Below the pieces are notes generated by a model. The model worked only from the letters and a program-made list of their open reading frames with translations, made no database searches and was not told the origin of the DNA. From the NCBI GenBank assembly GCA_965207375.1, contig CBDBMG010000003.1:868340-932339 (forward strand): DNA of 64,000 bases. Reading direction: 5' to 3'. A program made the position numbers and the translations under genes. The DNA comes from Nitrosopumilaceae archaeon. Its GTDB lineage: Archaea > Thermoproteota > Nitrososphaeria > Nitrososphaerales > Nitrosopumilaceae. This document shows positions 4,829 through 53,013 of the stretch, in pieces. The stretch's first letter is position 1. Every line of letters begins with the position of its first letter.

Positions 4829-7196
4829 AATTGTACCAAGCATTACAGATGATTTTTATCAAATGTGGCATATTAGCAATAAAGTAAATGAAATCTCCGG
4901 ATGAACGACACACATTAGGCACTCTGTATGTGACACCTGATTTCATATAGTAATACTGCTCCATCTGATGCCATCTAAAGAATTTTCTGTTAGGAGCAGC
5001 ACCATCTGCAACCACACAAACTAGCTACTTGAACAACAGGTAATTGAAGCATTCTAATAGCTCTCCACACCAAATACACTAAGTAATTATAATTAGAGGT
5101 GACACCTAAGAATGCCACATACAAGACCAATATAAAATATATACGTATTACAAACCTGTGGTTGCAAAATGAAACAATGGAAAGTTCAATTTAAAAATTT
5201 CCTCTAATTATGGTCATTATATACGTATGTTACCATATGAGTTGCCACAGTGTGGCTTCTCAGAGACTGCCCACGAGTGCATTTCTCTTGGAATGCAGAG
5301 AACCATTCATCCAGGCTTTGCTGGCCACAATCAACAAATCCAGTAATTGTTCCAGTATGTTTGTCAAATACAAGATGCTCACGAATTTTCATCATAAAAC
5401 AACAAACCTATAATAGAAGTTTTAGTTGTAGTGTTTATCATACGTACGTTTCCTATTCTGCACTCTTAGATGATTGATTATAGTTGCATCAAAGCCTGGT
5501 CTCATGCTTATGCCAGTGCGTGTAATCTCTCAATGTCCTGTTTGAAGGTAAGCATATATAACCTGACACGCAAAATATCGTAAGTCTTCCAGGATGTCAA
5601 CATTATGTTAAGGCATAATCTTATAAACAAGGGGTGCCACCTGACACCATTTCTCTTTGCCTTGTTAGCTTTTACCTTTGTGGAAGATAAAATGAGGTAT
5701 GCACAGAAACTCAATGCATACCTGTTGTTCTCAAAAAATCTGCTTGAAATAATCTTTCTCCAATGCCTTGTGGTCCTCAATAACTCTTTGCATATCTGAA
5801 TTCAAACTATCATCCAGTTGTATACAAGAACTAGATTCCATCAACATTTTTGCTTTCAGTCTAAGCCTTCTGAGTTGAGCATTTTTGCTTTTAATGGCTC
5901 TCTGCAATGATTGTATGTATGCGGATCTTTGAGGTGTTTGCAAATATCTTGTGTTGATGTGACTGCTAACAGTTTTTAGCCTACTGTGTCTTGAAACTAG
6001 AGAACGGAGAGTGTTACACGATATTCACTGCAAGTTAAACAAACAGACTGCTCCATCAAAAATATACTACATTGTACATGTCCAACAGTAGCTGAGTATT
6101 CAACTCCATCCACATTGATGCACATGCTTTCATCCAGAGTAGCCACAATATCACCAGAAGGAGATAAAACCTTTTTCTTTCTCAGTTTAGCCACTTCTAT
6201 AAACTCTGGTTCAAAGTTTCCATGGCACAAACTTTGCCTTACTTATACACTGCATTAAGCTCTTCAAGAATGGTTTTAGGATAGGTACTAAAACATTATT
6301 TATTGAAACTAAGTGGCTACCAACAAAAACTTGCCAAGACATATCACTTCTAATCAGCAGACAACGGGAAAATGTATAGATGACGATGATGACTGGCTGG
6401 AAACTTGAGTACAGTGAATTTCTTTAATACCATGCAAAACGCAGATGGTGACATCAGTTTGTTCACGTGGGGTATGTATGTTTCCAATTCAGGAGGGGTA
6501 TCTCTTATCTATGGTATAAATTTATTACATCCATTTAAATTTTAAGTTATGTTAATGATGGGTGCATGGCTGCACATGCATTGCATGGGCCCCCAAAATA
6601 TTGATAACATACAGTGCTGCCTTATGACTGTTATCCTAAGTGATATTCCATGTATACAAATATAATCTATTAGGAGTTCTGCATTCTGCCAATTCATTGT
6701 TAGTTCTTTACTCTTAAGGTTCAAACAACCAGATTTCTAAATGTCCAACTGACAACTGATTCAGGCACAGCTGGTGATAGTACTTGAGTAAGGTGCGTAG
6801 GAAGCACTCCACAACTGAGGTGGCACGATAAGTTATCAGGATACATTATATGGAGTAACGGTAAAAACTGGGGGGTACGTGCTCCCTGATTCCGACGCCT
6901 ATGAGTTTTTACAAGATACCAGCCCTGGTTAATTAATCTATTTTCATGTAATTTTTATGTGTTGATAATTGATGATTACTGCATTGGATATACACGTACT
7001 TTGCATATAATTATATACTTATACTAGGGCCCAAACGAATTTGGATTACCAGGGTTCGAACATTCATTAGTTAAAGTTCACAAATCTTTTGAACTTAAAA
7101 AATCATTGTGCATAATAGTTACAAATTGATCTGTAAAACAAAATTACAGCATATTTAATAGTACTTGACTCAAAGCAATATTATGATATTTTTAAA

Positions 7197-8154
7197 TTAT
7201 GTTATTAAACAGTAATTGTTATGGAGAAAAATTAATGCATTTACATTCTCCCTGCTCAAACTGCTGCGAAGTCTAGTGACAGTTAACCCTGCTACTGAAA
7301 ACAACCTTTCACTGCTTATGGAAGTTGCTGGGATAGCAGAAAGAAGTTTTACAAGCTGACTGAGATGAGGATAACGTAAAGAGTTGGCTTTCCACCAAGC
7401 TAAAGGATCAGAATTCCTAGGAGCACCAGATTCAGAAAAATACAAATCCACTTCATCCTCTAATGTAACAGATGGATTATTTTCTTCTCTTCCAAACAAA
7501 ATATCCAGAGCTTTCTTCTTGGTTGGAGGTTGTGAATTTTGTGAGACTTGTGAGTCTGAGTTTAGCGTATCACAAGCAAATTGTAGCTGTTGTATTTGGT
7601 CTCTTAATTCTGCTTTTACTTCTGATATTTTTTCTGCATTAAGAAATTTTAGGGCTTTGTACCGAGGATCCAAAGCTGTTGCAAGCACTTTGATATCTGA
7701 AGAATCAATGTCATCCAAATGCCACATACTTCTAATCTGACTATCAACAGATATCTTAAATCTTCTAATGTTTGTTGAATCATTTTCTTTAACTTCCAGA
7801 TGCTTGAGAATTCCAAAAAGAACAGGAAGAATTGACGATAGAGATGAGGTTGCCTCAGAGCACAGGTATGTTGTTCCTATTTCTAGTGGGTGAAGTATTT
7901 TTACTAAATCACCAAGTAGCTCCCACTGTGTGGTTGTCAAATCTAGCCTTCTATGCTCTACCCTTGTCACAGATTCATCTGCTAGAACTGCTGAAATTGG
8001 CCATCTGTTTTGAAGAAGCGATTCACACATGTAAAAGGTACTGTTCCATCGTGTTTTACAGTCATTTTTCAATTTTTGTTTAGGTTGATTCATGCTTTCT
8101 TGCCTTTTTCGTAGCTCTTCAGTAGCTCGGGTACTATGGTGGAAGTGTTTGACC
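7197..8154 (-). pseudogene. hAT transposase, C-terminal half
   Basis: KHFHHS, DCKTRWNSTFYM, LDPRYK, PLAWWK, PATSISSERLFS (hATC dimerisation region). Confidence 0.95.
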
Positions 8155-8255
8155 GGTTGTTTCCCCATATAAGAATCACAAAATATGAATTATAAATATA
8201 TGTAAATAACATTTATTCCAGTGCAGTATTTCTAAATTAAATGCTTGAGGAATGC

Positions 8256-9681
8256 TCTACTGGTTCTAGTGGTTCTGATGGTTCTAGTGGTTCTGATAGT
8301 TCTACTGGTTCTAGTGGTTCTAGTAGTTCTTATGGTTCTGATGGTTCTAGTGGTTCCAGTAGTTCTTATGGTTCTGATGGTTCTAATGGTTCTAGTAGTT
8401 CTTATGGTTCTGATGGTTCTAGTGGTTCTAGTAGTTCTAATGGTTCTAATGGTTCTAGTGGTTCTAGTAGTTCTTATGATTCTGATGGTTCTAGTAGTTC
8501 TTATGGTTTTAAAGGTTCTAATGGTTCTAGTGGTTCTGATGGTTCTAGTGGTTCTAGTAGTTCTAATGGTTCTAATGGTTCTAGTGGTTCTAGTAGTTCT
8601 AGTAGTTCTTATGGTTCTGATGGTTCTAGTAGTTCTTATGGTTCTGATGGTTCTAGTGGTTCTAGTAGTTCTAATGGTTCTAATGGTTCTAGTGGTTCTA
8701 GTAGTTCTTATGGCCAGTTCTGATGGTTCTAGTGGTTCTGATAGTTCTAATGGTTCTGATGGTTCTAATGGTTCTAGTAGTTCTTATGGTTCTAATGGTT
8801 CTAGTCGTTCTAGTAGTTCTTATAGTTCTAATGGTTCTAGTGGTTCTTATGGTTCTGATGGTTCTAGTGGTTCTAATAGTTCTAATGGTTCTGATGGTTC
8901 TAATGATTCTAGTAGTTCTTATGGTTCTGATGGTTCTAGTGGTTCTGATGGTTCTACTGGTTCTGATGGTTCTACTGGTTCTAGTGGTTCTAGTAGTTCT
9001 TATGGTTCTGATGGTTCTAGTGGTTCTAGTAGTTCTAATGGTTCTGATGGTTCTAGTGGTTCTAGTGATTCTTATGGTTCTGATAGTTCTACTGGTTCTA
9101 GTAGTTCTTATGGTTCTGATGGTTCTAATGGTTCTAGTGGTTCTAGTAGTTTTTATGGTTCTGATGGTTCTAGTAGTTCTGATGGTTCTAGTGGTTCTAC
9201 TGGTTCTAGTGGTTCTAGTAGTTTTTATGGTTCTAGTGATTCTAGTGGTTCTAGTGATTCTAGTGGTTCTAGTGGTTCTTATGGTTCTAGTAGTTCTGAT
9301 GATTCTAGTGGTTCTTGTGGTTCTAGTGGTTCTAGTAGTTCTTATGGTTCTAGTGGTTCTGATGGTTCTAGTGGTTCTAGTAGTTCTTATGGTTCTGATG
9401 GTTCTGATGGTTCTAGTGGTTCTAGTGGTTCTAGTGGTTCTAGTGGTTTTAGTAGTTCTTATGTTTCTGATAGTTCTGATGGTTCTAGTGGTTCTAGTAG
9501 TTCTTATGGTTCTAGTAGTTCTTATGGTTCTAGTGGTTCTAGTAGTTCTAATGGTTCTAGTGGTTCTAGTGGTTCTGATGGTTCTAGTGGTTCTAGTAGT
9601 TCTTATGGTTCTGATGGTTCTGATGGTTCTGATGATTCTAGTGGTTCTAGTGGTTCTAGTAGTTCTTATGGTTCTGATGAT
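8256..9681 (+). repeat. Left subterminal array of 9-bp units (GGTTCT-AGT/GAT/AAT/TAT)
   Basis: Tandem array visible directly, starting immediately inside the TIR. Confidence 0.95.
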
Positions 9682-9744
9682 GCACTTCATTACTAAGGCC
9701 ACACCGGCTATTTCAATGGCAAACGTAACGGAACTCAAAACTTT

Positions 9745-9890
9745 TTAAACTGGTTATTGTTTTTGAAGCCTGTGGTGGGCACATACACAAACACACACGC
9801 ACACATACTGACACACATGAACAAACATGCACGCTTACTGACGTCCGTACAGAAATGATTTCAAGCAACCAGGGATGCGCCTGCATTAAA
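9745..9890 (+). mobile_element. Short interspersed repeat with (CA)n tract and terminal GC hairpin remnant (Helentron/HINE-like?)
   Basis: (CA)n then ctgacgtccgtacagaaatgatttcaagcaaccagg; related copies at ~14180-14270 and ~17133-17560 (opposite strand). Confidence 0.45.
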
Positions 9891-9974
9891 AATTCTAATA
9901 TCATGCAGCTCTAGTGACATTGTCTTTATGGTGCATAAATTACATAATTCCTTGAAAATTCTCACAATAAATAG

Positions 9975-12590
9975 CTATATTGTTGCATGTTCAAACATGT
10001 GTTTTAATTTTGAAGCAATCTGGGTAGCTGTTTTATATCTAAGCACAACTTCATCCTCTAAAGGCAAAAATTTGATTGTGAATAACTGATAATTTCATTG
10101 TACAGTTGAAAAGTATCTAAATCCTCTGTCTCCTCGATATTCTGTAGTTCACTTAGCACAATTGTTTCAAATGTTGACCAAATATTTACAGATAATACTT
10201 CTCCTCTTTCCACTGCAAATTTCTTGCTTGATGGAATTTCTATTTGTAATGAGAGAGCATGCCTCTTTCTCTTGCCTTCGATTGATGTAACTGGCTTTTG
10301 ACCATATGGATTGTTACAATTTTTGCAGTGACAATATGAACTACATGTAGTGCTACTTAAATAACACTTACATCTAGTAGCATAAGATTGGTTTGGAGTA
10401 CAGGATTTTCCTGAATTATTACCATTAATCCCACATCTGCAAGAGCTGTGCTCTTTGTGTGACTTGCTGCTTGCTTTGGAATCCTTCACTGTGTAAATAT
10501 AAGGTATTATTGCATCATAATGACCTGATCCTGTAGGGTTATATAGTAAGAACATCATATCAATTGGTTGACCAACTAGAGGAGTTACATATGTGGGATG
10601 ATATTAACATCCAGAGATAATAATTATGATGGATGCTTTTAGCGCTGTTGCTATAGCTAAGGGCATCAAATCACCAAATGCATTGTCAAAGAATCCATTT
10701 TGCAGAAACTTGTGTGCCTCTGTAGTATAATCATTAAGTAATGGAATGAATTCCTCATATAATGGACGATTTTCTCCACTAACTTCCTTCACAAATATCT
10801 CTCGCAGTTTGAGAGATAAAGATTCTAGATCAGTAGTGCCTAATTCAATCCATCTGTTAGGTCTTGATTTAATATTCATAGCCACCGCTTGGAAAAAGTA
10901 ATTTCCATTTGGAATTGTTGGAGAAACAGTCAATCCATATTTGCTTAGATTGTCATGATGATTAACAAAGCTGCTATCATCTTTGTTTAGAATACGAGTT
11001 GTGAATTCTTTAAATACATGAATGTAATCATTTAGCCTTGACACATTTGTTTTCTGTAATCCTTCAACAACTCGATATTTCTGAACACATTTTTGAAATG
11101 TGGCCATTATCAAATCTAAGTTTGTGCTATTTTCAAACGTAGTTTGCTCATAATGATCACATCCTGTGTCGTTTGTAATGGTTTGATGCTTTGGCATAAT
11201 TCCTATTGTTCTTGTACTCATTGTTGGAACTTTGCATAAAGAGTTGGCTGTAATTGGTTTGCTTACAACCTTTCCTCCAAATTTTATTGTGGCATTGTTT
11301 GAATGTAGAATTACAGTTAACAAGGCATAAGCAAGAAGTATTCCAATCCTACTTCTATTCCAATGAGTTGATGAAGTCCTTTATTTCGATTGGTTCCACA
11401 TCCTGCTGGAATATTAGACAAATACCCCAATGTTATGTGTTTCTTAAGCCTTTCAGTAGCAACATCTGTCTCACTATTAAATAATTTTACACCATTGTGA
11501 TCAGCTACTTTCTACCACTTTTTAATAAAATTATTCAAAGCTTAGTAAGATCTTTTCAGATGAGGGGGTTGTAGAAAGTCTTTTCTCTCCAGAATCACCA
11601 TCACATCTAAATACCAAACGCAAATCTTGTAAGCATTGTAATCTATATGGATGTCTTTTACGTAAAGTTTTAGAAATTCTTTGCACTGCATGAAATATAT
11701 CCAATTTTACAGATATATTTTTTCCAAAAACATTTTCTATTTTGTTGCGAAGTTTGCAACAGTCATCAACATACACTGTCCTCAAATTTTCATCTGATCT
11801 ACTTCCAAGATTTTGTAATAGAGCCACAACTTCCTGAAAACTTGTACCTTTTGTTAACTGCCAAGATACTATCTTTCCTTGATCATTTAGTACCAGAAAT
11901 AAAGAATTATATACATTAATCCATTTCTTATCTTCTCTAAGATATCCTATGTTAGAAGCTACTTTAAAAGTATGATCAAAACTAATACTTGTTCCTCTAT
12001 AGGAATAGCTTCCATTTCTTGCAAATATAATTGTTCATTCTGCAAAAATCCAGCTAAAAAGCACTTCGCTAAAATATCATTGCTTGGGGATTTAGAAGTG
12101 GGTGATTTCCAAAAGTCACTAGTAGTACTGCCATCTTCTTTAGTACTATCATCATTATTGGATAACAAGGTTTTTTGGTTGTTTTTAGTATGTTTTGTTT
12201 ATTATTGTAACATTCCCACCGTTTTTCTAATATGAAAGATTCCATGTCAAAGAATGTCATTCCTTTTTTACAAAGGGATGTACACATGTTAAACAGTTGC
12301 CTTGTCACTCCTGTTTGAAAAATGAATGGTATCACTTCTTTTGGCAATAGAGATAGTACTACTGTGTCATGTGATAGTAGTTTGTGTCTATTGTCACAAA
12401 CATAAACAGCGCTAATCAGATAAACAATATCCTCGACACTATGAAGTAACCTTGGTTGTCTAGAAGCACTACCACCATCATTCCAATAGGCTTCATACAT
12501 AGAACCTCCACATTCAATACACTTAATTAATCTTGGGGGGTAATTTGCGGATATATTAAGTATGGGTTCCATATAATGACAGTACACGTA
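9975..12590 (-). pseudogene. Zisupton/KDZ-like DDE transposase fused to OTU and CXC (CRC/tesmin-like) domains
   Basis: N-terminal C/H-rich region (IIWNP..CIEC..QPR..YVC..H); SISFDHTFKVASNIGY; VYVDDCC; VKLDIFHAVQRI; CGTNRNKGLH; OTU-like PNGNYFFQAVA...GDLMPLAIATAL...GHYDA; CRCG...RCKCY...CHCKNCNNPYG; several frameshifts and stops. Confidence 0.8.
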
Positions 12591-13444
12591 TGTCTCTTTT
12601 TATTCTTCATTTAAAAGTATATCCTAAACAACAAAAACATCCTGGCTGTAAAAAAAGTACAAGGCCAATCAGAAGCAGCATTGTAAATAGGTATGTAGCT
12701 ATGTATGTGTGACCAAAACTTTGATATCAGGTAAGATAAAGAATAGAACTGGTTAAAACTAGTGCGCTATGCATTTACTTAGTATACTATGCATGGTGTT
12801 TCCTTTTGTCCTTCTCTTTCCTCTATGCAGTCAGTTACTAAGAAGAGAAACTCATAAATAACCCTGCTTACAGTATTAAGTCACAAAAAATAACCGCACA
12901 GTTGTCAAAATGCGTGGTTAATGCTTACTAACTAGCATAATCATTTTTGTATGTATGTATTATCCTGTTAACTGTAAGAGTTATAATTATGGCATATAGC
13001 AGGCTTAGAGAAATAATTTTATGATGTTTCCAACTGTATTTTGCTTAACAACTGGCATGCAAAAATTATCAGGCACCTATGTATGCATCAAAGTTTCAAA
13101 AGTACTGGAAGATGGTGGTATTATTGGAATAGAAGCATTAACACCCGTCCTTGGCTCCACCTCAGACTCATGTAATAACTAAGAATCATACTCAGACCAT
13201 GATATAACTTATACTTATTGAATAAACATAGATAACTCATACTACTAATTCAGTCATATTATGATGTATTCTTAATGTTAATAAATAGGAAAGTTCGACG
13301 TTCTATCAAAAATATTGATACCAAACAGCTGATATTCACTGTGGCCATAATAACAAGGTGAAGTTTTAACCATCACATTTCCATTTCTTTTCAACAAAAT
13401 CAAAGTTACAATATAACTACGTAGTCATATCAAAGAATGTTAGT

Positions 13445-16400
13445 TAGCTACTAGTCATAAACATTGCTTCCTTTACATAATTTCCTGGTACTTGGCAGTT
13501 TTTTCGTAATTTCCTAGGAGCGACACTTTCAGCAGTTGCTTTCATTTTCTTCTGCTTTTGCTCTGACCTGTGCAAATTATGTACATGTGATCACAAAATA
13601 GCTGTAGTATTCATACATACATGTAAACTGTGTTAGTAGTAGTTTAACGTAGTTTACTATGCACGGTGCCTGGTTCGTAGATGGTAAAACATCAGCTTGT
13701 AATTTTATAGCAGAGAGAGGAGATTTCAATTTAACAAACCAATAGTTAACACAGTCAATGGAAGGTAGCTAACAACAAGTACAAAATCGTATGTTTTGGA
13801 AAGTCACAGACCAAAGAGTCATCACTGGGATCACATAACAATCCCTTTATAATCCAGTGTATTAGCAATGCTAAAGTTTTACCTTCTAAAACCAGGCACC
13901 ATATGTCTGTTACTATACGTACTGCTTTGATAAAAAATACAATTGCATCACAGGTAAGTCACATGAACAATGACTCATCACAAAGGAATGCAGCACTGCA
14001 TCCACATTTAAATTCAAATTTTTAAGTCTTATACTGAACAGCTAATACAATGTTATCTTAATCTTCTTTGGTAGTAGCTAACGACATGCTTTGTTTGTTA
14101 CTAAGGCTACACCCATCATCAGTGCCATAATTATAATGAAACTGAAAAGAAGTAGAATTTACTAAACTTCATTAGTCTTTAATACACAGACACAGACGCA
14201 TATCAACATCTGCACAGAAACAATTTCAGGAAACCAGGCATGCACAGGCCACAAGCTGGAGTTGGTTTGTTAAATTGGAATCTCCTTTCTCTGCTATAAC
14301 AAGTTTATATTTCACCATCTAAAAACCAAGCGCTGTGTAAGTTAAACCACTGTTAATCAACTGCTATTCAATGTATTTTAATAGTCACGTGAGTAAAGAC
14401 TCATCATTAAGGAACGCATAGCAATGCATACCTTCGATTGATTGTTTTAACTGTTGGTTAGTTAAAGTGGAATTTCCTGTGTCTGGTATAATCAAAGTGG
14501 TTAAAATTTGTATCATTTCACATGTTAACGTACATTCGATTGATTGTGTTAACTGTTGGTTAGCTAAAGTGTAATTTCCTGTCTCTGCTATAATAAAAAT
14601 GGTTAAAATTTGTATCATTTCACATGTTAACGTACCTTCCATTGATTATTTTAACTGTTAGTTAGTTAAAGTGGAATTTCCTGTGTCTGGTAAAATAAAA
14701 GTGGTTAAAATTTGTATTATTTTACATGTTAACGTACCTTCGATTAATTGTGTTAACTGTTGGTTAGCTAAAGTGTAATTTCCTGTCTCTGCTATAATAA
14801 AAATGGTTAAAATTTGTATCATTTCACATGTTAACGTACCTTCCATTGATTATTTTAACTGTTGGTTAGTTAAAGTGGAATTTCCTATGTCTGGTATAAT
14901 CAAAGTGGTCAAAATTTGTATCATTTCACATGTTAACGTACCTTCCATTGATGGTGTTAACTGCTGGTTAGTTAAAGTGGAATTTCCTGTCTCTGCTATA
15001 ATAAAAGTGGTTAAAATTTGTATCATTTCACATGTTAATGTACCTTCCATTGATGGTGTTAATTGTTGGTTAGTTAAAGTGGAATTTCCTCTTTCTGTAC
15101 AATAAAAATGCTTAAATTTTATACATTACTTTTTACACCTGTTTACTTTCAGTTGATTGTGATAATGGCTGCTGATTAAGATCTTGTTGAAATTCTGAAA
15201 ATGTAATAAGGTTACAACATTTTAGCATTTCCTCATCAAAATAGTTGCTTACTTGAAAGTAAGTTTTCTTTGATTTTGTCATCGAATATGTCCATATAAA
15301 GAATAATTGCTTTTGCTTTGCCATTTTTAAAATTAATTGCACAATTGCACTCTCCAACTTCATGACTAGCCTTTCTTGCTTTTCTAACCTCTGCTGCTAG
15401 TTCTTCCTTTTTCATTGGTAAAATAAAAGGAACTCCCTCAAATCGAACAGCTATTGCTGGTCTTTTCTGTCCCTTTCGGTTAGGTAATATTCTGATAAAC
15501 TGATTAAACTAAATTAGAGAGTTTTGTAATGTAATACAAAAGGTATTCTGTTGTCAAAGTTATTTAGCATTTTTCAGTACAGTAATCACAGCTTATAAGT
15601 ATTACTTTTATAGCAATGCCACAAGTCTGTATGAATAATACAGGTGTCACAGTCAAGTGGCAAATATAGCAAGGGGCGAAGCTACCTGTAAGTGCTATAT
15701 TTGTCATGAGACACTCACTGAGTGCTGTATTTTTCATATGAAAGAAGTGCAGTGCTTTAAGTCTTAAAATTCACATTTCTTTATATATAGCATTAACAAA
15801 GAAATTGCATTTATACTATTTGAAGACTAATTGTGTCAATAAGCCAAAATTCCATAAATACTCTACCATATTATGTCTACCCAACCACAGTTCTATAACT
15901 ACCCAACCACATGCACACTCCCATATCATACCTTATACAATACCTACCCAGCCCATAACCCTACCCACTAGCTTGAAACAACTATTGGGTTGCGCCACCA
16001 CTGTGGGCTGGCTAATCAATAATAACTTTACTAGAATGTACATATCAATCCCAAACCATTAATATTGTTTTAGCATACATGATTATGTAGCTATCATACA
16101 TATATGAGAAGCCTTGGCAAATTGAAGTTAACTTGTACAAGCACACTAGTGATTTTATGAAAAATAACCACTGCATTTGATCCTCCCATGCATAATACTA
16201 CGTATACATATATTTTGGTCAACTCATTTTTTTAGTGATATTGTGATAGCGTACTGTAAGTCACTCAAAGTCATGCATGTTTTGCATAAACTTATTACGT
16301 ACCATTAATGATTATGCGTGTATACTTCAGGACTCACGTGATAAAATAACATTTGTGTTACCAAGTGACAGAATCACCTCAGTGTTATTAGTAGATTAAG

Positions 16401-19400
16401 ATATCAAACTAAGGAAGCTTTAAAAAGGCACAATTCACCGAAAGCCACATAGTAGCACATTAAGTTGTGCACCTGTACATTTCCATTAGCCAGACACTCT
16501 TGTGCAGGTGCTTATCAATTAGAGATGATACGTAAGTTCCGCAGCACATGGCACAACAATTAAAATTTCTAATCAGTTATCGCCTATGCATACGAGACAT
16601 GTTTTCAAAACCTAAAGTTACACAGCAATTTAAGCCTGTTAATAAAGATCCAATACATTTTAGGCACCTCGTACTAGATGATAGATCCGATCGATCTCAT
16701 AGGTGGCCCTGCCAGGCTAATAAGGACATGTTAGTATATCCCATGTAATTCTGCACAAAAAGTATACACAATATATTGAGCTGTGTAAAGGCGGTGCACG
16801 ACTTTCGGTGACTTACGCTATGCAAGCCTAAAAATAACTAAAAGTAGTTACTTACAAATATTGTTTCAATCAATGGGATTTAAGTTACGTACAGTTATAC
16901 CCCAGTACAAGTATAATATCATAGTTATTATCCAAAGCTGAGGACACAACAGATATTTAGCAAGCATTAGTTAATATTATACGTATCTCTTTGAATTTAA
17001 GAGAATTATTTTTCAATCAAAAATCAGCCAAATAAGGATTTGTTTAGTGGGATATATAAAGTTATATGCCATGCAGTACACTGGTATCGACCATGCTAGC
17101 TTGTGCTTTTGATACTTAATGTTTTGATTACCTTTTAACGCCATCCGACTGGCGCACGCCTGGCTTCTATTTCTTTTATCCAGGAAGTGTGTATGCATGT
17201 GTGTGTGTGCGTGCGTGTGTGTGTGCGTGCTCCCAGGCTATGAAAACCATTCACATGAAATGAAGCCTGAACAACCAATCAAACAAGTCCTACTGCCTGT
17301 CAGTTCTTTATGTGGCCCTTACTATCGATATAACTGATGGGCGTGGCTTTAGTAACAAAGTGTGTCGTGAGTTACTGTCGAAAAAGAGCAAGCTTAAGGT
17401 AATACTATACATATTTGCCATTCAATTCATAACAAAGACATTTACATTACTAACAAGACAAAGTTAAAAGTGGGCATACTATGCAGGTTGTGAAGCTTAT
17501 AAAAGAAGGCTACCCTATAGTGTTACAGTAAGAATTTGGCTTTATATGACTTTTTAAAAAACTAAATACTGGAGTATAATGGTGATTTAAACATAGGAAT
17601 TAAATTTGTATACATACATTGTTATGTGTGAGTCTGAATTTAATAGCAGTAGATTTACACAGCACCTGGTTTTTAGATGGTAAAACATCACCTTGCTATG
17701 GACAGGCTTATTAGTCTTTAGGAAAATAATCTTCAATATTATAGCAAATTCTAAATAATGCACATCATAATAAACTCGTGCATTACTTAGTAATGACTGA
17801 ACTGTGCAGGTGTTAAGACTAACAACCATTCAGCAGAAAGTAAGCTCCACCTCAGCCTCATGCAAATTAACAAAGGATATCTGGCCTTATACGGGGTTTA
17901 ACTAATACATACATATGTATAAAGCCACACCTCATTTGTATCCAAATCTTCACAACCTTGTAGCAAAGCAGTAGCAAAGCGGTTGAATATATTGCTCTCC
18001 TCCTTACTGACTTCCTGGCTTTTAGGATCACTTGGATCAGCCTCCAAAAGTATTGGTAATACAGTTTCTATCATATGCTTCAGCACTCTTGCTTTCATTT
18101 CTTTAGCAGATGAGTCATTTAAGCCATAATCAAGCATCTGTTAGATACACATGAAAGAAATCAGTAACATACATAGAATTTCTGTTATTTAATGCTCATT
18201 AACACCTAGGACTCTTTGCACATATAATGAAATGTAAAAGTTTACCTTGTTTGTAAAGTAGAGTAAAATTGAACATCCTGTAACAACTCGGGGGTCGGAA
18301 ATTCCAACAATTTCAAAGAATATAGGATTTAGTAATTGCAGAATTTCTTCACGACCTTCAGTCTTAAGATCAGTTTCAATCCTTACTACGACACCAGCCA
18401 TAGAAGAAGCTGCTTTTAAATGGTTGGGTAGTTGTTGAAATGCTGCTGCCTGCATTGAATCCATAGGTCCTACTTTGGGAAGGTTGAATGGAACTAGCAG
18501 TGTGCGTGATGAAATTCTGTAAAATAAAACAGTAATTTTGTACCAAAATATGCACTCAGCATATATACATTTACCTTTCATTTTTTCCAAATGTGAAATT
18601 ACTGCTATAGAGAGGGCACGTTAATGGAAGTAGGCTACCACAAGCCACATTTGCTGAAATTGTGCCATTGTAGAATGAAACAATTACGTCTGCCACATCA
18701 ACAGGAAAGCTTGGATCATCTATTCTAAATGGTAAATTTGAAATTGTTGACCTTTGAAGGCAAAAGGCTTTGCTACATTTCATGTAGTGGTTTTTAGCAT
18801 TGTCGGCTCCAAAAAGTGACAGCGCTGCATGGATTGAAACTATTTTCCCGGTTGAAACTGGCCCAGAGACCATTACTTGTGGGCACAATCGAAACAGTTT
18901 TATTAGTTCTTGGTAGTGGAAGGTCATTATTCCAGCACCCATCATTAACACACAACTTAAAAAGTTATACATCAAACAAGTTTCCAATGTGTTTAGTAAT
19001 GCTGGAAATGATGCAGTAGACAGAGGCAACTCCAAATCACATGTTATTTCTTCCAGTGACAGCTCCTTTGAGTTGTTTCCTAATAATACAGAATACTTCA
19101 GCCACACATAATTGTGTTCAGAGTAACTTATGATGTGGCCATTACTGTTTAAAGCCACCTTGTCTGAAAAAAACCACACTTTTCCGCAGACTTGTTTGCC
19201 TAATGATGAAACTCCCGCTCGTGCTACATAATCTGGTTGGTCCTTATGAAAGCATTGCCGCTTATAGCTTATGTACTGTGCAAGCTCTTTGTCACTAAAT
19301 GAACACATCATTCTGCCACTCCCAAAGGTCGAATTTATTTGATTGATGAAATCCAATTTTCTGTGGACTGCAGCTATTGTAATATTATACTTACATAATG

Positions 19401-19845
19401 AATGTAAAGGAATATTAAAAATCTTACCTCTTCTCTTGGTCAAATTGCCGTGTAATTTTGCAACAATATCCGGTTTGTTGTTTTGCTTCAACAAAATCCA
19501 CTAACTGCATACCAAAGTCTGACTTAGGTAGATATAAATTACCCCTGTATATTCTAAATGACGATTCCTTATCACAGAATCTATATGGATTGTCCACTGT
19601 GACTTCATCAGGATCAATAAGGCGCACTTCAAGATCACTACTCATATTGATATTACTAAGTCACTTGCAGAAATGAGCATTTCATTTAAAGTCTCACTGT
19701 ATATAAATGGCTCTTTGCTTTGATGCTCAGTGTGAAAAATAAATCAAAGACAATATTGATGACACCTATTCAACTCAGTGCATCATGAAGTCACACCAAT
19801 GGTCATGATGCTTTGTAGGTCTCATTTGATGTTAAGTGTACCTAA
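13445..19845 (-). pseudogene. Multi-exon P-loop ATPase (AAA+/SF3/DUF927-helicase-like) with repetitive C-terminal tail
   Basis: Walker A GPVSTGKI, Walker B-like PFRIDDP, SSNF, ISSR. Phase-compatible joins at 18575/18516 and 18246/18137; open exon 15491-15253; tandem mini-exons; candidate terminal exon ~13567-13445. Linkage of the downstream exons to this gene is inferred. Confidence 0.7.
14420..15105 (-). repeat. 102-bp tandem repeat (~7 copies), each an intron plus mini-exon unit
   Basis: Unit = GTACGTT...TTATAG (48 nt) plus CAGAGACAGG...GAAG (54 nt, phase 1-1). Confidence 0.8.
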
Positions 19846-20151
19846 ATGACCTTTACTTTGATATGTAGCTAAACTCAAGGCATCATTAACAATTACATAA
19901 GGGGAAAGACATTTTATAAAGTAGATATAAGTTTAAGCCAAATGGTAATTCAAAATAGACATATGTATCCTTAGAAGAATACGTACGTACATACATACAT
20001 ACACACAATTAAACTTTAAGTAGAAGAATAAAAGGATATTTAACTGAGTTAACCACAGATCTAGAGTCACTGTATCACTAAACATAGCTACATAGCTACA
20101 TGTGCAGTAGCCCATAACATGATATTATTTTGCAAGTATTGATTTATGTCT

Positions 20152-21626
20152 CATAAGAACCACCAAAACCTTTAGAACCATTAAAACCACTAGAAACAGT
20201 AGAACCATCAGAACTGCTAGAACCATTAGAAACACTAGACCCATCAGAACCGTTAGAATCATTTTCCACCATTAGAACCATCAGAACCATTAGAACCATC
20301 AGAACCGTTAGAACCATTAGAACCACTAGAACCATTAGAACCATTAAAACTATCAGAACCACTAGAACCATCAGAACCACTAGAACCATTAGAACCACTA
20401 GAACCATCAGAACCAGTAGAACCATCAGAACCATCTGAACTACTAGAACCATCAGAACAACTAGAACCATTAGAACCATCAGAACCACTAGAACCATTAG
20501 AACTATCAAAACCACTAGAACCATTAGAACCATCAGAACCATTAGAACCATCATAACCATCAGAACCACTAGAACCATTAGAACTATCAGAACCACTAGA
20601 ACCATCAGAACCACTAGAACCATTAGAACCATCAAAACCACCAGAACCACTAGAACCATCAGAACCATTAGAACCATCAGAACCACTAGAACCATTAGAA
20701 CCACTAGAACCATCAGAACCATAAGAACTACTAGAACCATTAGAACCATCAGAACTACTAGAACCATCAGAACCACTAGAACCATTATAACCATTAGAAC
20801 CACTAGAACCATCAGAACCATTAGAACCATCAGAACCATCAGAACCACTAGAACCATTAGAACCACCAGAACCATTAGAACCATCAGAACCATCAGAAAT
20901 ATTAGAACCATCAGAACTACTAGAACCATCAGAACCACTAGAACCATTAGAACTATCAGAACCACTAGAACCATCAGAACCACTAGAACCATTAGAACCA
21001 TTAGAACCACTAGAACCATCAGAACCAGTAGAACCATCAGAACCATCTGAACTACTAGAACCTTCAGAACCACTAGAACCATTAGAACCATCAGAACCAC
21101 TAGAACCATTAGAACTATCAAAACCACTAGAACCATTAGAACCATCAGAACCATTAGAACCATCAGAACCATCAGAACCACTAGAACCATTAGAACTATC
21201 AGAACCACTAGAACCATCAGAACCACTAGAACCATTAGAACCATCAAAACCACCAGAACCACTAGAACCATCAGAACCATTAGAACCATCAGAACCACTA
21301 GAACCATTAGAACCACTAGAACCATCAGAACCATAAGAACTACTAGAACCATTAGAACCATCAGAACTACTAGAACCATCAGAACCACTAGAACCATTAT
21401 AACCATTAGAACCACTAGAACCATCAGAACCATTAGAACCATCAGAACCACTAGAACCATTAGAACCACCAGAACCATTAGAACCATCAGAACCATCAGA
21501 AACATTAGAACCATCAGAACTACTAGAACCATCAGAACCACTAGAACCATTAGAACCAATAACCACTAGAACCATTAGAACCATCAGAACCACTAGAACC
21601 ATCAGAACCATTAGAACCAGTAGAAC
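20152..21626 (-). repeat. Right subterminal array of 9-bp units, inverted relative to the left array
   Basis: AGAACC-ATC/ATT/ACT tandem array; rare variants recur at a 603-612 bp period. Confidence 0.95.
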
Positions 21627-21725
21627 ATTCCTCAAGCATTTAATTTATAAATACTGCACTGGAATAAATGTTATTTACATATATTTATAATTCATATTTT
21701 GTGATTCTTATATGGGGAAACAACC

Positions 21726-22686
21726 GTTTGACCACTGCTTTTGCAGCACCTAAAGCCTGTGCTATAGTGCTGATACTGAATCCTTCCATAATACATTACT
21801 GTAGACACTGAGCAGCACAGTTCACACTTTTCCACTGCTTGTCATCTTCTAAAAGACGTCCTGCCCGTTGAAAATTAGACCCTTGATCGTGAACAATAGC
21901 AAATATTTTGTTATCATCAATTTGGTACTCACTAACAACCTCCTTCAACTTCTCCACAATGTTGTCACCTGTGTGCTGCTCTGGAAACGAATAAGTAGCC
22001 AGAGTATAGCTCTTCATTTCCCAACAATCATCAATAAAATGTACAGTCAATGAAATGTAAGCTTCGTTAGCAAAGCTAGTCCAAATATCTGTTGTCATAG
22101 AATACTTTGTTGTATTTTCAGCTAAAACTTTCTTCAATTTTTCCTTCACCATAGCATACTTCCGACCAACAACATCCATTATGTGGACTGACGATGGAAC
22201 TACACAGCCAGGCTCTAGGAAAGATAAAAGTCGCTTAAACCCTTCTCCATCAACGACAGCAGCAGGTCGTAAATCTTTAGTCACCATGAACGCAATTAAT
22301 TCTATTATCTTTTTACTACGTGCTGGTGTACACTTATGGCGATTAAGGAAAGTATCCATGCTGGTTTGCTGCTTGTTGCCGCTTCCGACGGTATCGTTCC
22401 TTTTATATTTATCTTTGTGATAACGAATCAAATGATCTCTCAGGTTACTTGTTGCTCCGAGGTAAGAGTATTCATTGTTGCACAATCGGCACAGCATTTT
22501 CTTTCTGCCTGTGTCCTTAGTAAAGTAGTCCCACACGTCTGAGCGGTATTTCTTAGGCCTTAGGCTATCGCTACTATCCACAAAAATACTTTCTGTTTCA
22601 CTCACTGCAGTCGCTGGGTTATCCTCGCTACTTCTTTCACTCCGAGTTTCGCTCCTAGTCTCGCTAGAACTTTCGTCAGATTCCAT
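21726..22686 (-). pseudogene. hAT transposase, N-terminal half (BED zinc finger and catalytic core start)
   Basis: SDVWDYF...CRLC...TSNLRDHLIRYH; SMTTDIWTS; IVHDQGSNF; CAAQCLQ*CIMEG...AKAVVK joins KHFHHS across the insertion; one premature stop. Confidence 0.95.
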
Positions 22687-23749
22687 GTTCACTTTCACCA
22701 ACAACGGATATTGTTGTACTTTTCCGCATACTATTCTTTCATATAATTCGAAGCACTCAACCCACATTCGAAAGTTCGTTCATTCGAACGAATGTTCGAA
22801 TCCAGCTAAGTTCGTTTGGGCCCTAACTTATACATTATCGTCTATCACTGTAATTGCTTTACTGTTTATCATATCGGTACAAATTTCTAGATACCATTGA
22901 CCTGTTCATGTAGCTGCACTGTTGCTTGTACACTGAGAACGTACAGTGTATAATTATTATTGCACGTGAAGGACCGCAGGTCATAAGTGGTAAGTGTATA
23001 CATACCATCTATCATAGCCCCATGGAAGTTGTCTCGCTCTGTTGCAACTCAGATCATTAAACTAAATGAATTCTGTAGCATGGACATTCAAGAATCCTGA
23101 TCCTGATGATTTAAGTATACACGACCATATAGGGAGGAGGTTTTCTTGGGTTCTAGAAACCCCCTAGAACTTCTGGTTATTCTTGTACCACATCAATGTA
23201 CAAGAAGTGCAATAGAATTTTGCGGATCAATGATTTCTAATATATAGCAGTCAAAGGCTCTGTTACAGCAGTCAGCTTTAATATTGAGTGTACTATAAGG
23301 CTATACCTATTTGAAAAATATTTTTCTGTATTAAAGTTGGGTTAGTAGGTTGTTATAAGATAAAACCAATAAGGTACAAAATAGTTTTTAGTGCAGCCCA
23401 TGCATAATATTATTTTTACATTGAATTGAGCAATTATTTAGTGGCCGGGTTGCAATACAGTAACAGTTTCAAATGTATCTGTCCACTCACAGCACAAAAT
23501 TGCATACAGATAAACAACAGATTTTCCATGAAAACAGGTGCTTGTCACCAATTCTTCGTAATATTAATCACATGAATTTCATGTGACTTTTTAGCGCTTA
23601 TGTAAAGTCAGTCAGTCAGTCAGGTCAGAGCAACAGCTTCAAATAGGCCATAGAGTACTGATACCACCACACAAATCGCATCTTTCAGTCATATATATCA
23701 ACTAAAAATTGTTAACTATATAGCTATTGTATAAATTTGTACCGCAATG

Positions 23750-25545
23750 TTTAAGTAAGGACTAAGGAGAGCCCGATCTCTGGTCTTGCCTTTTTAAAGT
23801 CCTGAGTATGCTTGATTGCAAGTTCATTGATGATCCCATCTCTTAACAACTGCTTGGCTATCTGGGTTGGTATTAGATGGATGATACATACATGATTAGC
23901 TAGCTATATGTAGCTAGTACATGCAGCTATTAGCTACGGCTGCACATGTACATACCTTCAAACAAAAAACTCCACAATTGTGACCATCATATGCATTCTG
24001 AAGCCGTTTATTCAATTCTGTCACATCAACTTGATTTATATCATCATTGCATATTTCATTCCACTTCTTCAAGTATCTCCTACTTATAATTAATATCAGC
24101 TCACAATGAACTATCTGACTATATAGCTAGCTACGTATATAGTATACAACTTACATTACAGCAGTAAAAACTCCTTGCGCATAACGAAATGCCCTTGGGC
24201 CCAATGAATCGTAAAACCCAAAACTTTGCTTTTCAAGGTCTATAACCTACGTATACAGCTACAGCTATAGCTAGCTATAGCTATAACTACATAGAGTTAT
24301 GCTGTAATGATATGCAGCCATGCAGAAATATTAAGTTGGCCATAGCTACATAAACATATAGTTAACTAGCTATAATGTACAATTAGAATCCAATGGTTTA
24401 GAGAGCAGTCCAGTGAATTAGAGGTTAGAATCCAGTCCAGTGAATAGTGACAGCCCATGCATGTAGCACTATATAATAGTTAGCTGCATGTACGTATATG
24501 GTTTAGAGAGCTATAACCAATCTATGTATATAGTCAAGATAAAAGTAGCTATTTATACGTACGTATATACTTTTGGTCAATTTCAATTTGGCCAATAATA
24601 TCACTCTTTTACTTTCCCAATGGTAGCATCTCCCCTCCTGCAGTGAGGTGACATTCAAGAAAACCCTGTCTGTTTCATTTCTTAGTCAATCAAGGTTCCA
24701 TCTGGGTTTTGATTCTTGTAATACAGCTTGCCTTTTACCAGCTTGTAATTTTTGCAGCTTCTTCTTAATACAAATTTCTATGATTTTGTGAATCCATCTG
24801 GATAAGTTTAGTAGATGTTTGATTGTGGCATAGGATATCATCTACAAAGCAAATGGCGATCATAAATGATGTTATGAGCACAGAAAAGATTGCTATACTT
24901 TCAAAGCACTTATCAGATTCTTTTTTACCGATGGATAGTAATGAGATTTCACTTTTATCATGAACTTGCACTATATGTACATACAATAATAGCATGCATG
25001 TAAAATACTACAGCTACTGTGCATATATAACTAACTGCATAATGATACATAACATAGCTAGTTAGCTACAGATCAAAATTAAGGTCAGGTAACATAATTA
25101 TATTCCCTGACCTCCGCCTTGTCGTACAAAGACTTTTTTCATTTTTTGCTGTGTACTTGAACAGTGAACAAGTTGATTGATGTGCTTCAACAATTCACTC
25201 CCACAAAAAAGATCCTTGCACCAAAAACACTTGATTTTTCCTTCATCATTGTCGATATAAAGTGGCTGTTGCTCATGTAAAATACCGTATAGCGTGAAAC
25301 TTTGGCGGAGGAAAACTTTGGCGAATTTGCTCCTGCAGTATTTTGGCGAGTAAAACTTTGACGAATCAAATCCTCCAATCCTTTTAAATAATTATATTTT
25401 TTAAAAATTGGAGGGTTAAATTTTGGCGAGTTTCAAGAATTTGCCAAAGTTTTCCTCCGCCAAAGTTTTGCGCTATACGGTACCTTCTTCTTCGTCTGCA
25501 GAATTCAAAATCCTCTCCAGTTTTCTTTGTTTAACCTGACGAAAC
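23750..25545 (-). pseudogene. Decayed multi-exon gene: C2H2-like zinc finger, possible integrase Zn-binding remnant, Ulp1/C48 protease (probably TE-derived)
   Basis: Exon reads KCFWCKDLF...KHINQ (MITE removed); FLECHLTAGG...YYWPN; VIDLEKQSFGFYDSLG; QNAYDGHNCGVFCLK|gt. Confidence 0.55.
25285..25480. mobile_element. Tc1/mariner-pogo-type MITE
   Basis: TIR ccgtatagcg / cgctatacgg extended by aaactttggcggaggaaaac; TA TSD; removal restores EEEGILHEQQ. Confidence 0.85.
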
Positions 25546-25888
25546 CATAACATGCTATATGTATTAGTTATATCACTATTATGAGTATGATATCTTAGTT
25601 ATTACGTATATAGCTGCATGAGTCCAAGGCAAATTAAAGTCATTTACATGCTGAAAAACAATGATTACTGTCCATGCACAATTACACAAGTCATTGACCT
25701 AAACAATGTACTTTTTCTCACGCAGTTACGTGAGGTAATGAGCCACCCAGCCACCACACCGCGCACACATAGCATATATACATACCATCTATAACACTTA
25801 CTAAACCAGTATTTTGGGTGATACAGGGCAACCGAGGAAATTGTTAAGGGGCGGGGGCATTAAAACAAATTAAGTATTATTCTCTGGG

Positions 25889-26200
25889 CAGCACACACAT
25901 GTGCCACAAAGGTCATACCAGCATGCTGCAAAGGTTATACCAGCACACGCACATGCTGCAAAGGTCCTATCAGCACACACACGTGCTGCAAAGGTCAAAA
26001 CAGCACACACACGTACCACTAAGGTCCTACCAGCACACACACGTGCTGCAAAGGTCATACCAGCACACACACACGTGCTGTAAAGGTCATACCAGCACAC
26101 ACACGTGCTGCAAGGGTCATACCAGCGCACACATGTGCCGCAAAGGTCCTACCAGCACATACATGTGCTGCAAAGGTCAAAACAGCACACACACGTGCCA
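25889..26200. repeat. Minisatellite, ~31-33 bp unit
   Basis: cagcacacacacgtgctgcaaaggtcatac repeated about ten times. Confidence 0.9.
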
Positions 26201-28231
26201 TTTTAGAAATCTACAGACGAACACGTAACACATGACATGAGTGGTATGTTATTTTCCTCTCTTTAAACTTTGAACCCGGTGTTGACTCCAGCTATTCTAT
26301 TGTCAGAAGGTCCGAATGAGCCAGTTTCATTTCAGAGGACATTTACAGTGCGTCCTACTGTGTAGTGCAATAGCTACGCTTAATGCTTATCTTTCTAATA
26401 TTTGAGGATATCATCAGGGATTCCCTGAATTAACTGAGTACCAGCTTGCTGCTGTTGCTCCCAGACTTTATCGCACCTCTCTTGTCAGTGAACCATTGCA
26501 GATGTGGAATACGTATGTCACTGCTGCTCGTCATGACCACTCTCGCCACGGCGGTGGAGTTCTGTTATTGCATAGAGATAATTTACTGATGAATTCTGTT
26601 GATTGTGAGATGTATTATATGTCTGGGACCTCAGATGTGCTTTATCAAGAAACAATGATTTTGTCCATAAATTACATCGACAATCCAGTGTGTTTGATAT
26701 GACTCTAATTGATAATAAACCCAAACCGAGTGGATAAAATGTAGGGGGAAATGTGTCGATATAATTGTGAGTAAATAACTCGCTCGAATACCATGGCCAA
26801 TGTAGGGAGCACAGCGATCGGGCGACAAAATCGTGGGTCAGTGACAGAGCCTTTACATTAGTAAACAGGGGTGATATGAGAGACCTTTCATGCAAGTGGA
26901 AACTCCCTAGCTCTACACACACAATGAAACAATAAATACACTGAATAACAAAGTTTATCACAACAGTACTTCAAAATATTAAACACCATCTGAAGCTTTC
27001 TTCACATCAAGAGAACTTAACACACTGCGTACCTTAGAAAGTTTCACCCACCAAGATATTTTGCAAGTTACATTAGACACTTAGTAGACAAAGTAGGATC
27101 TAAATCAGCAGACAGTGATGCCTTGCTCACAAAATAAGAAGCAAGACTGTCAACATCAGGGGCAAATCAGATTTACATAGTCCGCTAATATTCTTAGTAA
27201 GATTCCACCATATACGATCATTAGTTCCTGACTGCAGTTTAGTGAGAAGAGATCTTCGATGATGATGAAGGGCAATAGCTTGGGCCCGCTTAGCTGGAAT
27301 CACAGAAGTACTTACAATAAGCTGGCCAATCATGCCTAGCCTGCAGTTTTTGTTTGTAGGCACGTTGGCAAAAACAATTCCAGGATGTTTAACAATAGAT
27401 ACGGTGGAGGACACCTAATGATCACGAACTTTTTTAAGAATTTTAACAAGGGCATCAACAACATCAGAGATAGGCTCAGACTTCAACATGTCCCATTGGG
27501 CTCGATGAAAGTAACCATTGATATGATTCCATGGAGCAGAGTTCCAATGATATACGTACCCTTCTAGAAGGTAATGGAGATGGCATATGTAAATTTCACA
27601 TTAAAATAGCAATAATTTATGATCACTAGCCCCCAAATATGGATGATAGGAAACAGTTCCAGTATATTCACTGATCGCCAGATCCAATACTCAACTAACT
27701 GGGAAAGTCTATACAGTTCACAGAACCCACGAACAGCAGCACCAGCAGAAGGGACTGCCTAACCATCCACGTTCGTGAACATTAAAATCACCAACAATAA
27801 TAATGAAGGCACTGGGGCTCAATATTGTGGAGCTGCTTTAGCATTATACAGGCTTTAGAGCGTGTCGAATTGTGTCCTTGGACATTCATGGAGCATTTGA
27901 TAGTGTTTGGCGGGGTGGATTATTACAACACCTCTGGAGTATGAGAATAAGGGGTAAGGCTTATTGTTCGGTGCATTCATACGTATATCTGTGAGTCTGT
28001 GACAGAAGCTTGTATGTTGTTGCTCATGAAGACACCTCATCCCAGTGGCCATTCACTGCAGGAGTTCCTCAGGGTGGCATTTGGTCCCCTATATTGTTTA
28101 ATATGTATTCGTCATCTTTCAGCTCAAATTTTGTATCACAGTTGTGATTTATATAATTACTTCAGTATGCTGATGATTCTCAGATGATAGGACTACTGCA
28201 GCTGATGAAACAAATGCTCGTGGGGTCGGAT

Positions 28232-28670: not shown

Positions 28671-28749
28671 GATTATTAATTTTGAGCCTGCTAAATGTCA
28701 CTGGCTTTGTGTTTCACATAAGAGAGATGTTAGTTTATACACCCACCAC

Positions 28750-30533: not shown

Positions 30534-30576
30534 ATTATTGAACAAGTAAAACATACAGACTGAGCTCAATTGTATA

Positions 30577-44958: not shown

Positions 44959-53013
<8,055 letters not shown>

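Follow-up and report, generated by a model that had tools for sequence, protein, structure and literature searches.

A spliced gene for a Cch-like, helicase-type ATPase, probably an accessory gene of a large IS256/Mutator-like DNA transposon, in marine-invertebrate-like DNA

What is a spliced gene for a P-loop ATPase doing among the remains of DNA transposons, and does it code for a helicase of the kind carried by mobile elements or for an ordinary ATPase of the host? This question is raised by the 64,000-nucleotide stretch of DNA analysed here (the window), which forms the final 64 kb of contig C4; the record it belongs to has four contigs and is scored as the complete genome of a bacterium. 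An initial annotation, made from the sequence alone, had placed an intron-containing ATPase at 15253..19845 inside a transposon and proposed a mobile-element helicase of the DUF927/Cch or SF3 type. We find that the predicted protein, in its modelled fold, most resembles the Cch helicase of a staphylococcal mobile element and that its gene lies together with a decayed transposase gene, here called K, between the terminal inverted repeats (TIRs) of a single insertion. A large cut-and-paste DNA transposon of a marine-invertebrate-like eukaryote probably carries the ATPase gene as its second, accessory gene. The coordinates of all features are collected in Table 1.

The main ATPase exon belongs to a frame of 309 amino acids (aa) from stop to stop on the minus strand (18571-19500). 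The four motifs on which the initial annotation was based are present on this strand in the expected order, namely GPVSTGKI (18864-18841), RIDD (18726-18715), SSNF (18606-18595) and, opening the next exon, ISSR (18515-18504); by analogy, SSN is a candidate sensor and ISSR a candidate arginine finger. A six-exon model on the minus strand (19645-15133) joins 1800 nt into an open frame of 599 codons with no internal stop, and its five introns of 67, 58, 108, 2422 and 58 nt all have GT..AG borders, in agreement with the phase-compatible introns described earlier. The proposed extent of the gene was right in its location but not at its ends: the segment 19646-19845 is not coding, the start codon being at 19645 with an in-frame stop upstream of it at 19663-19661, and a sixth short exon runs to a stop codon at 15133. 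The further open exon suspected at 15491-15253 proved real (modelled as 15508-15253), its product being 40-57% identical to the counterpart in a paralogue on contig C3. This paralogue (C3:526321-530586) keeps exons 1-5 at 36-83% aa identity, and the comparison of copies that had been proposed gave pN of 0.228 and pS of 0.766 over 560 codons, with synonymous sites saturated. The ATPase gene is a real gene that has evolved under purifying selection.

Out of 1.84 billion proteins searched, 390 match the main exon at E<=1e-3, 141 of them at E<=1e-10, well beyond what chance would give. Most of the 390 are single-exon fragments, and many of those in an alignment of 40 relatives end or lose similarity just past the end of exon 2 of the window gene, which therefore indicates an old, shared intron position; a search for relatives longer than the main exon found none. 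Intron 4 and the spacer between the ATPase gene and K are filled by short interspersed repeats (17151-17629, 14296-14431, 15595-15903 and 16252-16810), each of a kind present in dozens of copies at 65-79% identity over contigs C2-C4.

To establish the type of the protein, the 309-aa main exon was modelled with AlphaFold from an alignment of 40 relatives (pLDDT 82, pTM 0.76). The top two Protein Data Bank (PDB) matches of this model in Foldseek are Cch of SCCmec (5dgk, E 1.6e-5) and Rep of SaPIBov1 (8tch, E 2.3e-4), followed by the poxvirus D5/E5 proteins. Alignment with VIA-align gave Z 11.2 for 5dgk (rmsd 4.5-4.7, 232-233 residues aligned, model residues 32-309) and Z 9.7-10.0 for the Rep helicase. 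These two are the only chains with Z>=8 among the Foldseek candidates (11.2 and 9.7) and again, in an independent pass, among 48,161 representative chains (11.2 and 10.0). The alignments to Cch and Rep span 211-233 residues and extend over the domain that precedes the P-loop; for generic AAA+ proteins, Z stays at <=8.0 over ~115-150 residues, which cover the P-loop core only. The D5/E5, E1 and LTag helicases rank below Cch and Rep, with VIA-align Z of 6.0-7.4 and Foldseek E-values of 6e-4 and weaker. The best matches in a viral fold library are phage primase-helicases, three of them named DUF927. The fold comparison suggested by the initial annotation for separating the helicase from the transposition regulators IstB, TnsC and MuB thus favours the helicase type. 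These regulators were found neither among the 50 matches listed by VIA-align nor among 12 PDB sequence matches at E<=10, which does not by itself rule their families out.

Sequence profiles point weakly in the same direction. The best PDB profile match of the ATPase family is again 5dgk_A (E 0.017), and DUF927 is the commonest Pfam match in the family, with 7 of the 40 relatives at E<=0.01; two of these score 21.9 and 20.3 bits, under the PF06048 cut-off of 22.6, and a K-linked relative (L012:18568-19380) scores 28.7 bits, above this gathering cut-off. Phage families annotated as 'DNA primase' or 'primase/helicase' in PHROGs are matched by 4 of the 40. Judged from the model, the fold, including its N-terminal domain, is Cch-like and matches the DUF927-type helicases, and the protein would represent a distant, Cch-like branch of these helicases with unproven membership in the Pfam family.

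The DNA that carries the gene is a single insertion with an 8-bp target-site duplication (TSD) inside the frame of a hAT transposase. This reading follows from the TIRs, the TSD, the hAT frame that continues over the site and an empty-site joint found in public sequencing runs. The inverted repeat begins at 8154/21726 and comprises 127 aligned nt with 3 mismatches, and a 109-nt TIR probe matches at 98-100% in three places only, which are the two ends of the element and a duplicate at C4:166672-166780. Each end contains ~1.4 kb of subterminal satellite, in opposite orientation at the two ends. All four public runs examined, which come from two studies, have contigs with the empty-site joint, 8146->21726, which skips 13,579 nt with 8 ambiguous letters. 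On an intact homologue at C4:76732-78472, the two hAT halves adjoin directly. No inverted-repeat pair bracketing the ATPase gene alone was found. Thus, the ATPase gene does lie within a transposon, as had been claimed; its carrier, however, is not the hAT element but a 13.6-kb IS256/Mutator-like element nested in the hAT frame. In the interrupted hAT frame, a TAA codon stands in phase immediately ahead of the insertion site (21796-21860, minus strand; ...CAAQCLQ*CIMEG...), and the hAT copy is therefore itself damaged or intron-containing there.

An inverted segmental duplicate on the same contig (C4:140001-174633) is 95-99% identical to window positions 1-14026, 23448-33714 and 47319-56837 and lacks a 9.4-kb stretch that holds the ATPase gene. 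The window form is the original one and the duplicate carries a later deletion, since the window has the two hAT halves with identical copies of the TSD; the deleted-form joint 14025->23448 is also present in run X1. A Helitron reading of the 14026/23448 junction, which has no TSD and an insert starting with TC, was rejected, as the ends are not Helitron-like and the hAT halves with their identical TSD copies mark the window form as the original. A second stretch private to the window relative to the duplicate is located at 33715-47318 (13.6 kb), and a 63-nt segment at 13705-13767 is an inverted copy of the unit of the 102-nt tandem repeat in the spacer.

K was recognized with P0155, an 878-aa relative, as the query in tblastn. 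The window copy aligns to P0155 in three frames, with 95% identity over the query core piece and 82-93% in the other aligned pieces; it is garbled at ~11380-11530, has one premature stop and a Tyr in place of the catalytic Cys of the OTU domain, and is dead. The K family, with proteins of ~880-950 aa and 181 relatives, is well conserved and almost wholly unannotated, its zinc ribbon being a sub-threshold match to DUF6729. Among 37 full-length K proteins, D207, D277 and E405 are invariant, and the OTU Cys/His pair and the CXC cluster are invariant or nearly so. The structural model of P0155 (pLDDT 80.9) has the IS256-family transposase of ISCth4 as its top Foldseek match (6xg8_A, E 2.7e-7, TM 0.54 on the target, ~420 columns) and also matches OTU domains (OTUD3, E 1.1e-5), and P0155 is accordingly predicted to fold as an IS256/Mutator-type DDE transposase joined to an OTU domain. 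None of eight full-length K proteins matches the Pfam families Mutator, MULE or Transposase_mut at E<=0.01. The CXC match and the 8-bp TSD had prompted a KDZ/Zisupton identity, which was rejected with no KDZ Pfam match at E<=10 and a fold that indicates IS256.

The genome that houses the gene is eukaryotic and marine-invertebrate-like, although the record is scored as 99.95% complete and 0.06% contaminated. Contig C1 (2.16 Mb) is bacterial-looking, with frames of >=150 aa covering 0.83 of its length. Contigs C2, C3 and C4 (0.43, 0.78 and 0.93 Mb; GC 0.37) are eukaryote-like: such frames cover only 0.13-0.22 of them, and they contain spliced genes, frames of hAT and retro-elements of the long-terminal-repeat type, and dispersed short repeats resembling short interspersed elements. 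Those relatives of the ATPase gene that are named belong to a sea star, a sponge and an acorn worm. We read the window as animal-like host DNA because of the low frame coverage, the spliced genes and repeats of C2-C4 and the animal relatives of the ATPase gene; these three contigs were probably binned with a symbiotic or associated bacterium. As a practical point, three contigs of a 'bacterial' genome record are probably host DNA. Another mobile element is found elsewhere in the window, at 57995-59242 (plus strand), where two adjacent frames encode a helix-turn-helix and an integrase core domain (rva_4, E 4.9e-81).

Table 1. Features of the ATPase-bearing element and its surroundings (positions in the window)
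Feature	Position	Strand	Basis or remark
Whole TIR-bounded DNA transposon with ATPase gene and K pseudogene	8155..21725	.	13,571 bp
Left 8-bp target-site duplication GTTTGACC	8147..8154	+	Junction sequences; 8 ambiguous letters at joint
Right 8-bp target-site duplication GTTTGACC	21726..21733	+	Junction sequences, empty-site joint
Left terminal inverted repeat, non-satellite part	8155..8262	+	Inverted match to right end
Right terminal inverted repeat	21618..21725	-	Inverted match to left end
Left subterminal satellite	8256..9679	+	9-nt unit, TRF periods 36/45; inverted copy of 20152-21626 at 82-85%
Right subterminal satellite, inverted relative to left array	20152..21626	-	TRF
K, decayed copy of ~880-aa intronless transposase (zinc ribbon / DDE / OTU / CXC)	9978..12599	-	tblastn with P0155 (878 aa)
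102-nt tandem repeat, 6.9 copies	14429..15127	+	Spacer between K and ATPase gene
ATPase exon 1	19428..19645	-	ATG at 19645; 59% aa identity to C3 paralogue
ATPase exon 2	18575..19360	-	N-terminal domain and P-loop core (Walker A, Walker B, SSNF)
ATPase exon 3	18246..18516	-	ISSR, candidate arginine finger; 70% aa identity to C3 paralogue
ATPase exon 4	17931..18137	-	Paralogue comparison, GT..AG model
ATPase intron 4	15509..17930	-	2.4 kb, swollen by interspersed repeats; ~0.8 kb in C3 paralogue
ATPase exon 5	15253..15508	-	The 'further open exon' of the initial annotation
ATPase exon 6 and stop codon	15133..15194	-	Model only; not conserved in C3 paralogue
hAT transposase, N-terminal half (BED finger)	21796..22779	-	Pfam; frame continues over insertion site
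hAT transposase, C-terminal half (hAT dimerisation domain)	7197..8189	-	Pfam
Stretch missing from C4:140001-174633 duplicate	14027..23447	.	9.4 kb: ATPase gene, right satellite, right TIR, hAT N-half

If the ATPase is a gene of the element, it should be sought beside other copies of K. The linkage was examined from the K side, in a census of 80 metagenomic K loci, because the main ATPase exon used alone as a query found no relative in metagenomic and genomic contigs. The host contigs (2.14 Mb) contain the ATPase gene at three loci and K at three; the two genes stand together at two places, in the window and on C3. At the C3 locus the two genes are head-to-head, 0.6-0.75 kb apart, and a satellite of the window type follows K; core identity between window and C3 is ~56% for K and ~67% for the ATPase. 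Within the census, three of the 80 loci (L012, L019 and L055, the last a near copy of L012) have a DUF927-like exon 2 at a distance of 2-7 kb from K, and L020 and L054 have an exon-3 remnant of the ATPase only. At two loci, a DUF3987 gene occupies the head-to-head position ~1 kb upstream of K (L025:1744-3201 and L075:1-777, both on the minus strand; 61.9 and 39.0 bits, respectively, against a cut-off of 27). The DUF3987 proteins and the ATPase are separate families, given an hhalign probability of 12% for the DUF3987 frame against the ATPase family. The congruence of K and ATPase distances is weak over five loci, with only the window-C3 and L012-L055 pairs being closest in both genes. Among the matches listed by blastp between the frames of the K loci, no gene beyond the ATPase exons is shared with the window or C3.

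Other observations at these loci concern the third ATPase copy and the surroundings of K. The third ATPase locus, C3:432181-433328 (L085 9179-10329), is decayed in several frames, belongs to a more Amphimedon-like subtype and has no K nearby; a C-terminal-like ATPase piece is found on the opposite strand at L085 8274-8567. Long inverted arrays of tandem repeats surround K, 10-16 kb apart, at L020 (5792-6857 and 17815-22068) and L056 (168-677 and 9749-10107), which suggests that kilobase satellite ends are a trait of the K family. Two frames beside K were rejected as helicase partners: that of L030 (1153 aa) is a coiled-coil protein with no clear P-loop context, and that of L032 (563 aa) is another transposase-like frame.

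Several observations weigh against an element-borne helicase of the DUF927 type. With respect to the protein, the ATPase exons of the window have no Pfam match, none to PF06048 even at E<=1, and a PF06048 search of the whole genome gave zero matches; hhalign of the 40-sequence profile with six primase-DUF927 proteins reached a probability of 73.9% (E 2.8e-5) over 67 columns only, from Walker A to Walker B. Most prokaryotic DUF927 helicases are accompanied by a primase or polymerase, yet Pfam scans found neither domain in the ATPase exons or in the window frames of >=150 aa, in agreement with the earlier remark that no primase, polymerase or capsid gene is visible nearby. The Walker A Lys is followed by Ile (GKI) in the window and by Thr or Ser in 108 of 114 relatives. 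With respect to the linkage, no partner gene is seen at 14 of the 19 K loci with >=3 kb of flank on one side, and a head-to-head partner at only two of the 22 with >=2 kb upstream (L075, with 1.8 kb, is a third). Gene order varies as well, being tandem in the window, head-to-head at C3, L019, L025 and L075, and K-then-ATPase at L012 and L055. TIRs, TSD and empty site were verified for the window element only: a TIR search around C3, L012, L019 and L055 found none, and a 113-nt inverted repeat at L025 has no TSD. Finally, introns are present in the ATPase gene and absent from K, which is what capture of the ATPase gene would predict. The ATPase gene must be optional, because most K loci have no such partner, and we read it as an optional accessory that the element lineage gained repeatedly.

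The window copy itself is probably inactive or nearly so, because K is broken, the Mg-binding Thr/Ser of Walker A is replaced by Ile and the ancestral acceptor of intron 1 is lost. The nearest ATPase fragment, P0006, has Leu after the Walker A Lys. The ancestral acceptor AG, kept on C3 (...K-R-ICYFT), reads TC in the window, and a two-codon insertion interrupts the conserved motif; the modelled acceptor is a phase-compatible cacAG at 19361, 39 nt downstream of the ancestral site, which keeps the frame open and skips 13 codons. Judged from this comparison, the ancestral coding part of exon 2 probably reached ~19400. Among the best-supported differences listed over four public runs, none is a letter change in the coding exons, and a 6-nt indel at the ATG is listed. 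At this position (19644), all four runs are 6 nt shorter than the window, within an AATATC/AATATG repeat at the start codon, and the ATG is retained.

The absence of the ATPase gene from most K loci bears directly on the possibility that it is a passenger, captured as DNA, introns included, by a Mutator-like element (MULE) in the style of Pack-MULEs, with no role in transposition and with a family made up mainly of genes of hosts or other elements. Such an origin, which we consider unlikely, would account for the spliced ATPase gene beside an intronless K and for the 14 of 19 informative loci without it, as well as for the ATPase locus on C3 that has no K nearby. The annotated relatives, from Patiria, Amphimedon (with a PHD finger) and Ptychodera, are recorded as uncharacterized genes of an ordinary kind, and gene capture by MULEs is known (excerpts of PMC6446971). 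However, the pairing of the two genes is old: both have diverged together between the window and C3, to the point of saturated synonymous sites. It also recurs in other assemblies, and DUF3987, a different helicase family, likewise sits head-to-head with other K genes, a pattern that suggests one function recruited repeatedly.

An element gene could also be a regulator of transposition, an ATP-dependent switch for target choice or delivery and for target immunity like MuB, TnsC or IstB, rather than a helicase. The layout of a DDE enzyme and a separate P-loop ATPase of AAA+-like type per element is indeed that of MuA/MuB of Mu, TnsB/TnsC of Tn7 and IstA/IstB of IS21, two-component systems that are prokaryotic and whose ATPases are regulators, not helicases. 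The lack of a primase or polymerase in the scanned window frames is in line with such a role, and reinsertion of maize MuDR needs a second gene, mudrB (excerpts of PMC6446971). Nevertheless, we regard a regulator as improbable in the light of the extended fold match to Cch and SaPI Rep, which includes the N-terminal domain, of the absence of MuB, TnsC and IstB among the matches listed, and of the family members that match phage primase or primase/helicase families.

A remnant of a eukaryotic virus or virus-like element in a transposon-rich region, such as a Polinton-like element or a D5-type primase-helicase of giant viruses, deserves very little credence. Poxvirus D5/E5 and giant-virus D5-like helicases do appear among the fold matches, and the viral SF3 helicases (poxvirus D5/E5, papillomavirus E1 and SV40 LTag) share the same broad AAA+-like core, D5 aligning over ~181 residues. 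Their VIA-align Z is only 6.0-7.4, and the window ATPase has no primase domain. The D5 type is far weaker throughout, with Foldseek E-values of ~6e-4 to 5e-3 in PDB and ~2e-3 in BFVD and Z of ~7.2-7.4, and giant-virus D5-like proteins are ~four orders of magnitude weaker in E-value than the phage primase-helicases in the viral library. Moreover, window frames of >=150 aa include no capsid, polymerase, primase or packaging gene, and the ATPase gene lies within a transposon bounded by TIRs and TSD. Equally hard to credit is an ordinary or domesticated host ATPase gene around which transposons have piled up: its six exons are open although K is broken, and no letter differences in them are listed over four runs apart from the indel at the ATG, but the gene is inside the TIRs, absent from the empty site and from a near-identical duplicate on C4, and has a rare Walker A substitution and a lost ancestral acceptor.

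An accessory helicase-type gene of the element is thus the account we prefer, and its closest known parallels are Cch (SCCmec, PF06048) and SaPIBov1 Rep, the best and only strong fold matches. They share with the window ATPase the order of Walker A, Walker B, Asn motif and Arg, and each of them resides on an integrated mobile element. Unlike Cch and Rep, the window ATPase is spliced and eukaryotic, its carrier is a DDE transposon with TIRs and TSD instead of an island mobilised by a recombinase, the scans gave no primase or polymerase partner, and the sequence similarity is marginal. The carrier resembles MULEs (e.g., maize MuDR with mudrA and mudrB) and IS256 in the predicted fold of P0155, long TIRs, an 8-bp TSD and an extra gene beside the transposase, whereas K differs from MULE transposases in its OTU and CXC domains and in the absence of a Mutator-type Pfam match, and the extra gene is a helicase-type ATPase. 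The TIRs, which measure at least 109-127 nt and are 98% identical, and the 8-bp TSD fit the range of the Mutator superfamily, for which TSDs of 8-11 bp are given in excerpts of PMC6446971.

Eukaryotic cut-and-paste transposons are thought to require a transposase alone. To our knowledge, helicases occur in Helitrons and virus-like elements but not in Mutator-type DDE elements. In a literature search that did not extend to Repbase Reports and subscription journals, we found no description of the K family or of any eukaryotic transposon with a DUF927- or DUF3987-type gene; literature combining MuDR, OTU and cysteine protease yielded Ginger only, and no paper was found on DUF6729. DUF927 and DUF3987 are described as ATPase domains that replace known helicases beside primases in prokaryotic mobile elements (excerpts of PMC5862659), and, judged by titles and abstracts, the literature found on these two domains concerns nearly always prokaryotic elements or phages and never a eukaryotic transposon. 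Excerpts of two MULE papers, PMC6431247 and PMC6446971, mention no helicase or ATPase as a second gene, and in the latter, a survey of MULEs, neither the word 'helicase' nor the word 'ATPase' appears.

In intact relatives, the protein would form a ring-shaped, ATP-driven DNA motor. This motor would act on the DNA of the element itself, most likely by unwinding the long, repeat-rich ends; alternatively, by analogy with what Cch and SaPI Rep do for their islands, it may initiate replication, either of the element or of a copy that has been excised. Cutting and joining would be done by K. More tentatively, we suggest that a marine-animal IS256/Mutator-like lineage may repeatedly have taken up replicative helicases (DUF927/Cch-like and DUF3987) of types otherwise confined to phages and to the mobile elements of bacteria and archaea, which would have given it a helicase-driven step; this scenario is possible but doubtful.

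Some animal transposons, the analysis hints, may possess a DNA-unwinding engine of their own. If the helicase serves the element, eukaryotic DDE transposition would gain a replicative or end-unwinding step, a route by which genes pass from prokaryotic mobile elements or phages into animal transposons would come to light, and a function could be proposed for an unannotated gene family of sponge, echinoderm and hemichordate genomes. If the repeated recruitment also holds true, the helicase step would consist in unwinding kilobase repeat ends or replicating an excised copy, and these elements would be an animal counterpart of the replicating SCCmec and SaPI islands.

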